A stretch of DNA of 64,000 nt, from contig CBFGTS010000001.1 of the NCBI GenBank assembly GCA_965652295.1, positions 64,001-128,000 of the forward strand, written 5' to 3'. This stretch comes from an uncultured Haloferula sp. (GTDB taxonomy: Bacteria > Verrucomicrobiota > Verrucomicrobiia > Verrucomicrobiales > Akkermansiaceae). Shown piece by piece: positions 24,241-24,784 of the stretch (position 1 is the first letter of the stretch; each line of letters starts with the position of its first letter). The position numbers and the translations under genes were made by a program. The notes below the pieces were generated by a model. The model saw only the letters and a program-made list of their open reading frames with translations. It was not told where the DNA came from and searched no databases.

Positions 24241-24268
24241 CAATCGGCAATCTCCAATCGTGAATCTT
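24241..24268. repeat. Heptamer array (CAATCNN on +) between the regulator and cgdA
   Basis: caatcgg caatctc caatcgt gaatctt, filling most of the intergenic gap. Confidence 0.8.
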
Positions 24269-24726
24269 CAGTCCATCATCCGCTTCGCGTGGAGTGGCGG
24301 AATGAGGTGCGGGGTGAGGGTGAGCTGGGCGGTTTTGACGCCCTTGCAGGTGACGAGTTTGTTGGCGATGTCGCGCAGGGTTTTCGCCGGGCCCTGCATG
24401 AGGATGACCTCGAGCATGTGGTCGTCCTCCAGCAGCACGTGCTGGGAGGAAATGACCTCGGCGATGTGCTCGCGGAAGATGCGCGAGAGGTCGCGCAGGA
24501 GCGTGCTTTTCGACTCGTCGTAAACCAGCGTCAGCGTGCCGGCCATGACCTCGGTGCCGATGCGGCTGAGGTGCTGGGCGGCGTGCTGGTGGATCATTTC
24601 GGCGACCGCCTGCGAGCGGCTGTCGAAACCGCGGGCGACCACCAGCCGGTCGAGGAACTGGTAGGTTTCCTCGGGCATCGACACGGTCACCCGCTTCACT
24701 CCTTCGTTGGTCTCGTCGTTCGGCAT
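24268..24726 (-). CDS. NikR-like ribbon-helix-helix transcriptional regulator
   Basis: N-terminal RHH (KRVTVSMPE...LDRLV..RGFDSRSQAV) and a NikR-type C-domain (GTLTLVYD...VISSQHVLLEDDHMLEVILMQG). Confidence 0.88.
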   Translation of the reverse strand: MPNDETNEGVKRVTVSMPEETYQFLDRLVVARGFDSRSQAVAEMIHQHAAQHLSRIGTEVMAGTLTLVYDESKSTLLRDLSRIFREHIAEVISSQHVLLEDDHMLEVILMQGPAKTLRDIANKLVTCKGVKTAQLTLTPHLIPPLHAKRMMD

Positions 24727-24756
24727 CGCCGACCGCTTACAGCACATCGGGGGCCA

Positions 24757-24784
24757 GTATGAAGAAATTTTTCATTCGTCACAC
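24757..24784. promoter_or_regulatory. NikR-type operator upstream of the NikR-like gene
   Basis: GTATGA-N16-TCACAC, one mismatch from the E. coli NikR operator GTATGA-N16-TCATAC. It lies 30 bp upstream of the ATG and overlaps a -10-like CATACT on the minus strand. Confidence 0.7.

Follow-up and report, generated by a model that had tools for sequence, protein, structure and literature searches.

Here we describe a regulator that is built like NikR but, by its sequence, is classed as something other than a nickel-responsive NikR. It is encoded at the head of an operon for guanidine carboxylation in an uncultured Haloferula sp., and it is a candidate protein sensor for guanidine; the guanidine sensors known to date are RNA switches. 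The reading we favour, with a probability of roughly 0.55, is that the regulator would be a repressor released by guanidine or an N-methylguanidine and layered on sigma-54 nitrogen control. The stretch analysed (the window) is 64,000 nucleotides long, and its relevant features are collected in Table 1.

Table 1. Positions in the window of the regulator, its control sites and the genes of its operon.
Feature	Position	Strand	Evidence or remark
NikR-like RHH + ACT-fold regulator	24268..24726	-	152 aa, degenerate nickel site
NikR-type operator, 28 bp	24757..24784	.	GTATGA-N16-TCATAC type, one mismatch, AT-rich spacer
sigma-54 -24/-12 promoter	24740..24756	-	GG at 24755-24754, GC at 24743-24742
cgdA (UAAP1), carboxyguanidine deiminase subunit	23518..24234	-	TIGR03425 315 bits, cut-off 206
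cgdB (UAAP2), carboxyguanidine deiminase subunit	22886..23518	-	TIGR03424 323 bits, cut-off 285
Four-helix-bundle (23S rRNA IVP family) gene	22522..22875	-	TIGR02436/PF05635; variable insert, non-core
uca, urea/guanidine carboxylase	18888..22508	-	TIGR02712 1776 bits; D702 = guanidine type
atzF, allophanate hydrolase	17158..18882	-	TIGR02713 714 bits

The preliminary description of this DNA, made from the letters and their translations, held that the NikR fold is retained and that a single canonical histidine is left at the nickel site. Both statements are borne out. Pfam matches above cut-off place RHH_1 at residues 12-51 and NikR_C at residues 62-138, and the top match among PDB sequences is the NikR of P. 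horikoshii (2bj1, E 5.6e-23). An AlphaFold2 model of the regulator (mean pLDDT 89.4) retrieved NikR entries in 29 of 29 rows among the Foldseek matches listed, and its ESM Atlas clusters are NikR_C only. The high-affinity nickel ligands of NikR are H76, H87, H89 and C95, according to the available part of PMC7055735. Alignment to E. coli NikR (1q5v) replaces Q75 with F84, H76 with R85, H89 with L98 and C95 with M104, and leaves H96 (E. coli H87) as one of the four canonical ligands. The protein also scores under all five NCBIfam NikR cut-offs (92.4 bits against 105, 80.1 against 111, 71.6 against 83, 67 against 175 and 60.4 against 119). It carries Q111 and a C-terminal tail, P143-P144-x-H146, which mark the clade described below. 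The codon of F84 lies at 24475-24477 and puts Phe in place of the conserved Gln that precedes the first nickel His; the same Gln-to-Phe change occurs in an H. pylori NikR chain (2wve) that is apparently an engineered variant. A longer reading frame of 159 aa, from an in-frame upstream ATG at 24747, was considered and set aside as an unlikely start because it lies inside the promoter.

A search of 50%-identity representatives returned 865 relatives at E<=0.001, 150 of which were aligned. In the trees, canonical NikR with its Cys stands apart from a group that has Q111 and the PP tail; under midpoint rooting only, support for the split is 0.993 in FastTree (166 rows) and 100/99 in IQ-TREE (39-row subset). 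A three-His QHHHY subclade, Opitutae-like, adjoins the split. Conserved positions in 72 degenerate sequences, which were picked by the absent Cys and the present tail so that those columns are circular, include Q111 (100%), L117 (98%), E90 (86%) and M61 (77%). Canonical NikR has Arg or Lys at the position of Q111 in 92% of cases. The YDHH histidines are lost in the same 72 sequences, H103 is only 38% conserved, and the former nickel-ligand positions are highly variable across the clade. Judged by the order of secondary structures in the AlphaFold2 model, the conserved positions should cluster at one sheet edge, where they could form a new pocket or a hinge latch.

The clade spans Verrucomicrobiota and Proteobacteria. 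Among 401 Verrucomicrobiota genomes a CgdA-family match was found in 42 (41 over the cut-off), a clade member in 36 (33 confirmed by residues, three by score and coverage only) and both in 35; one carrier genome (G171) has no CgdA match, and seven CgdA genomes have neither the regulator nor a detectable riboswitch. In plasmid-collection records (5 of 43 opened) members of the clade from Novosphingobium, Sphingobium, Asticcacaulis and Acinetobacter neighbour the same genes. Among the best 80 of 492 metagenome loci, 76 have pathway genes and four are short. Three His are kept in 36 of the best 80 metagenome members, and with the three-His QHHHY subclade this means that the family is not uniformly metal-blind. 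A second and more degenerate NikR paralogue, with L-R-T-H-V at the ligand positions, was seen in another genome (G312; L132:4453-6694). It is divergent from the urea ABC transporter gene urtA (TIGR03407 over cut-off), is flanked on either side by sigma-54-like motifs, may have a dyad of wider spacing, and is perhaps a urea-sensing offshoot.

Gene order after the regulator, on the same strand, is cgdA-cgdB-(four-helix-bundle insert)-uca-atzF. The insert recurs in 3 of 59 related loci, and the true start of uca may lie about 10 codons later. Residue D702 of the carboxylase aligns to N1330 of the K. lactis enzyme (by alignment to 3va7, index 737 with a 593 offset to 5i8i). The part of PMC11410670 available to us gives Asp at this position as the defining mark of guanidine carboxylases; the guanidine-type call on Uca uses this 1330 signature, one of two, the other being Asp at 1584. 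With an Asp-type carboxylase, CgdA, CgdB and allophanate hydrolase, the operon is assigned to the guanidine carboxylase pathway by its predicted products. The arrangement is shared by close relatives. A regulator match was obtained on remapping in 59 of 60 GTDB loci, the closest named relative being that of Haloferula luteola (95%), and cgdA is next to the regulator in 54 of the 59; four loci end at a contig edge and one (L047) is without it. Among related loci, every carboxylase that could be read in the regulator's operon (24 of 24) is of Asp type, and so are all 26 readable metagenome cases (10 more were unreadable). At one locus an extra Asn-type (urea) carboxylase with atzF lies on the opposite strand beside the Asp-type operon (L105:15964-19999).

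Two further sequence features of this region were noted. Repeats with a 7-bp period (window 20151-20178, 20670-20690, 22467-22501, 22873-22893 and 24241-24261) sit around the four-helix-bundle gene, in operon junctions and inside uca; arrays of at least four units number 14 genome-wide, two of them in the urease operon. Upstream of the operon, at 24925-26154 on the minus strand, a secreted-looking protein of 409 aa has no Pfam or NCBIfam match. It is absent from the flanks of the 59 related loci and is therefore probably unrelated.

A GTATGA-N16-TCACAC site had been reported 30 bp upstream of the regulator, and the site was confirmed at that distance from the ATG at 24726. Its near end is 1 bp from the -24 GG of the promoter. 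All 56 upstream regions compared from relatives contain the dyad (perfect in 36, with one mismatch in 10 and with two in 10); among random 120-bp stretches, 0.9% have it at 0-1 mismatch. The 56 are the 59 regulator-matched loci minus three with less than 100 bp upstream, and as close kin (67-95% identity) they attest conservation rather than 56 independent events. In the 4.37-Mb genome the window site is one of three with one mismatch. Search of the genome with the pattern at two mismatches was dropped, as the count equalled that of the control (43 vs 44). The case for the window operator is therefore its conservation among relatives, since the pattern at two mismatches is at chance level.

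The promoter motif GG-N10-GC begins 1-3 bp past the operator in 56 of 56 loci (background 4.3%). This fixed spacing, together with rpoN and three strong Sigma54_activat matches in the genome, identifies a sigma-54 promoter by motif. From the usual spacing between the -12 element and the transcription start, the predicted leader is about 4 nt here and -1 to 6 nt across the 56 loci. Between 16900 and 25000 no sigma-70 promoter was found, and terminator-like sites (4, against 5.9 in shuffles) indicate no meaningful terminator. The earlier suggestion of a repurposed, autoregulatory NikR-family regulator of the operon is supported. By inspection, several relatives have just before the regulator promoter a gene whose end resembles that of the Rieske gene of the importer operon described below.

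Genome-wide, an operator matrix gave two matches above 12 bits, both at guanidine-pathway operons. One is the window site, whose 40.5 bits are partly circular since its own relatives trained the matrix. The other, outside the window at C1:143051-143078 (22.2 bits), is the sole perfect pattern match in the genome. It lies 8 bp past a GG-N10-GC motif and 28 bp ahead of a GimABC-like importer operon (G000:C1:143051-152065, or L100:10052-19066). The operator is downstream of -12 and over the predicted transcription start, as at many other loci. The operon encodes an ABC binding protein, permease and ATPase, a type III glutamate-ammonia ligase, and creatininase-like, GFA-like, FGE-like, isomerase-like and Rieske oxygenase proteins. 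The binding protein reaches 172 bits on TIGR03427, under the cut-off of 334. Its W33, W36, D107, W177 and D206 are spaced like the modelled guanidine-site residues W59, W62, D135, F205 and D233 of GimA (from the available text of PMC12704784), a comparison of spacing only, unaligned. The best match of the ligase is the glutamate-methylamine ligase 9qur (E 1e-114), hinting at N-methylated substrates. The operon may encode an as yet undescribed pathway for creatinine or N-methylated guanidines.

Of 21 loci with the regulator, 17 have an operator ahead of the importer and four do not; of five loci without the regulator, none has the operator there, and all five keep the sigma-54 motif. These five controls come from two genera, and two further regulator-less loci lacked the region. 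The importer appears to be the regulator's most constant target, because several metagenome loci have the regulator behind the importer, creatininase and ligase genes and lack any cgd gene close by. The regulator-less operons (L120-L126) have two cgdB-like genes each, L126 being cut at a contig edge, and the five controls, with a sigma-54 promoter and no operator, suggest nitrogen-only control. A plasmid record of Acinetobacter sp. (L063:142-17480) has three operators at three transcription units. One of these units includes genes for a 2OG-Fe oxygenase, a hypothetical protein and an SMR exporter, a grouping that loosely resembles mgdH/mgdL.

A promoter matrix from the 56 loci gave 32 matches above 11.5 bits in the genome, many of the lower ones unrelated. 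The top four include amtB, rpoN and glnK, and a further match lies at what we take to be a glutamine synthetase gene. The urt-urease region has a sigma-54-type motif by inspection. We read the sigma-54 motifs as a nitrogen (starvation) regulon that includes the regulator operon. Of the genome's sigma-54-type motifs, one of the two best lies at rpoN itself (G000:C11:94103), which suggests that rpoN is autoregulated. In the whole-genome scan the operator matrix had no match at the amtB, glnK or urt-urease promoters. Guanidine, urea, a pathway intermediate and nitrogen status had all been proposed as signals. Urea is disfavoured by the Asp type of Uca and the operator-free urt-urease region, and general nitrogen status by the sigma-54 promoter that already supplies it and by amtB and glnK without the operator. 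The signal is instead likely to be pathway-specific, because the operator marks guanidine-pathway operons only and sigma-54 supplies the nitrogen signal. A nickel-homeostasis regulon was rejected, as there is no operator at urease and no NiFe hydrogenase was found in the genome.

Operons of this kind are commonly controlled by guanidine riboswitches. No riboswitch had been recognised by eye at the operon, and the Rfam scan agrees: there was no match at gathering score over the whole window, and only three chance-level matches at E<=5 over 22400-25100. The predicted leader of a few bases leaves no room for one. A strictly filtered search that scored up to 68 candidates in each genome found no guanidine-I riboswitch in the source genome or in any of 43 from Verrucomicrobiota, whether they carry the regulator or not. 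Rfam likewise found no riboswitch at the regulator-less operons L120-L126 or at the importer locus L100. A test of mutual exclusivity is uninformative within Verrucomicrobiota, because guanidine-I turned up in none of the regulator-less genomes either. Elsewhere the two coexist. Guanidine-I occurs in 2 of 7 loci of a first set (L063, L065), and guanidine-I or -II in 4 of 9 loci of a second set, chosen partly from a motif hint. At L063, L065 and L176 an operator, a sigma-54 motif and a riboswitch follow one another in this order on the same promoter; at L193, L195 and L214 the operator stands before the importer and the riboswitch before cgdA. These six loci refute the idea that regulator and riboswitches exclude each other, and the regulator is therefore a parallel layer rather than a strict replacement.

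We propose that a NikR-derived repressor gates the sigma-54 promoters of a guanidine-scavenging regulon. By analogy with NikR, a tetramer would place two ribbon-helix-helix dimers on half-sites 16 bp apart. Whether it abuts the -24 element (own operon) or covers the start (importer operon), the bound operator would block sigma-54 polymerase. The C-terminal ACT-like domain would no longer bind nickel. Its most likely ligand is guanidine or an N-methylated guanidine that has been imported, upon whose binding the DNA would be released, and expression would need nitrogen limitation and substrate together. We favour an inducible repressor because guanidine acting as a co-repressor would work against the ON riboswitch found after the operator in L063 and L065. 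Since canonical NikR has a higher affinity for DNA when its ligand is bound, induction would need inverted allostery. Several observations count against this inducible repressor. A riboswitch after the operator in L063, L065 and L176 would make a guanidine-sensing protein redundant there. The three-His metagenome members and QHHHY subclade, the close kinship of the 56 loci, the origin of the five regulator-less controls in only two genera, the four importer loci without an operator, the G171 genome and the seven CgdA genomes with neither regulator nor detectable riboswitch also weigh against it. In its favour, there is a precedent (in the part of PMC12508155 available) for one operon with two guanidine sensors that differ in specificity. 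A wider evolutionary reading, to which we give somewhat less than an even chance, is that a guanidine or N-methylguanidine transcription factor arose from a nickel sensor by stepwise ligand loss and inverted allostery, and gates sigma-54 guanidine promoters in several phyla, with or without a riboswitch. The three-His members would then be surviving intermediates of the ligand loss.

The strongest alternative, though an unlikely one, is the same repressor with the polarity of NikR kept, in which the co-repressor would be a metabolite that reports sufficiency (glutamine, ammonium, allophanate or another product of the pathway), shutting the importer and the ATP-costly carboxylase route. No inversion of allostery is required. 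ACT-like domains commonly bind amino acids, the importer promoter as most constant target recalls NikR and nikABCDE, and co-occurrence with guanidine-ON riboswitches would be explained as an AND gate. However, sigma-54 control already gives a general nitrogen signal, and the amtB, glnK and urt-urease promoters are without the operator. Less probable is a ligand-blind DNA binder, either a constitutive autoregulated dampener or an IHF-like architectural helper of sigma-54 activation. The variable old ligand positions fit such a loss of function, the window operator sits close upstream of the -24 element, a place open to action by bending proteins, and no conserved activator site is established; the conservation of Q111, L117, E90 and M61 argues against it, and an operator downstream of -12 at C1:143051 and many loci fits repression only. 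The least probable reading is that the protein still senses nickel or another metal through a site that is weaker or has been rebuilt (H96, H103, H146) and keeps the nickel-free carboxylase route repressed while nickel enzymes are able to function, for which speak the urease and lack of another NikR in the genome, the three His of many clade members and the CbiM/NikM-type transporter genes that follow the nearest canonical NikRs (two tested), but against which stand the loss of three of four ligands, a urease operon without operator, a regulon of guanidine rather than urea type and the poor conservation of H103.

If the repressor released by guanidine is real, a metal sensor has been turned into a metabolite sensor and the 'nickel-responsive' annotation of many homologues is wrong. 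Two defined operators with a promoter make a guanidine-binding transcription factor testable in a small experiment, and the protein could be made into a biosensor that detects guanidines, metformin breakdown products among them. The available text of a 2025 review (PMC12186494) names riboswitches as the sole receptors of guanidine that are known, other than transporters and enzymes, and counts guanidine-binding transcription factors among the things that await discovery. The accessible part of bioRxiv 10.64898/2026.05.01.721428 presents NikR as a specialised nickel sensor. In the portions of the literature searched, no description of the clade or of a guanidine-binding transcription factor came to light; earlier regulon or NikR-tree work, or RegPrecise, could already note the genes.

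The regulator resembles the NikR proteins of P. horikoshii (2bj1), E. coli (1q5v, 2hza) and H. pylori (2ca9, 6mrj) in its RHH + ACT-like fold, in an operator that matches the E. coli GTATGA-N16-TCATAC site (as given in the available part of PMC7055735) and in a putative target that includes an ABC importer. Unlike them it is without three of the four ligands and the YDHH histidines, falls below the NCBIfam NikR models, and stands on a separate branch (100/99) with Q111, the PP-x-H tail and sigma-54 promoters of guanidine genes. The proposed pairing of nitrogen limitation with substrate has a counterpart in Synechocystis, where NtcA and guanidine-I act in two layers on gdmH and gimABC (accessible text of PMC12704784), and in Proteobacteria the NtrC targets include atzF and uctABC (accessible text of PMC5343134). 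The second layer here would instead be a NikR-derived repressor, of which the available parts of both papers make no mention. The guanidine-I to -IV riboswitches (RF00442, RF01068 and others) head the same cgdAB-carboxylase-atzF and importer genes. In contrast to these, the regulator is predicted to be a protein that acts on DNA at initiation, and the leader here is too short for an RNA switch.
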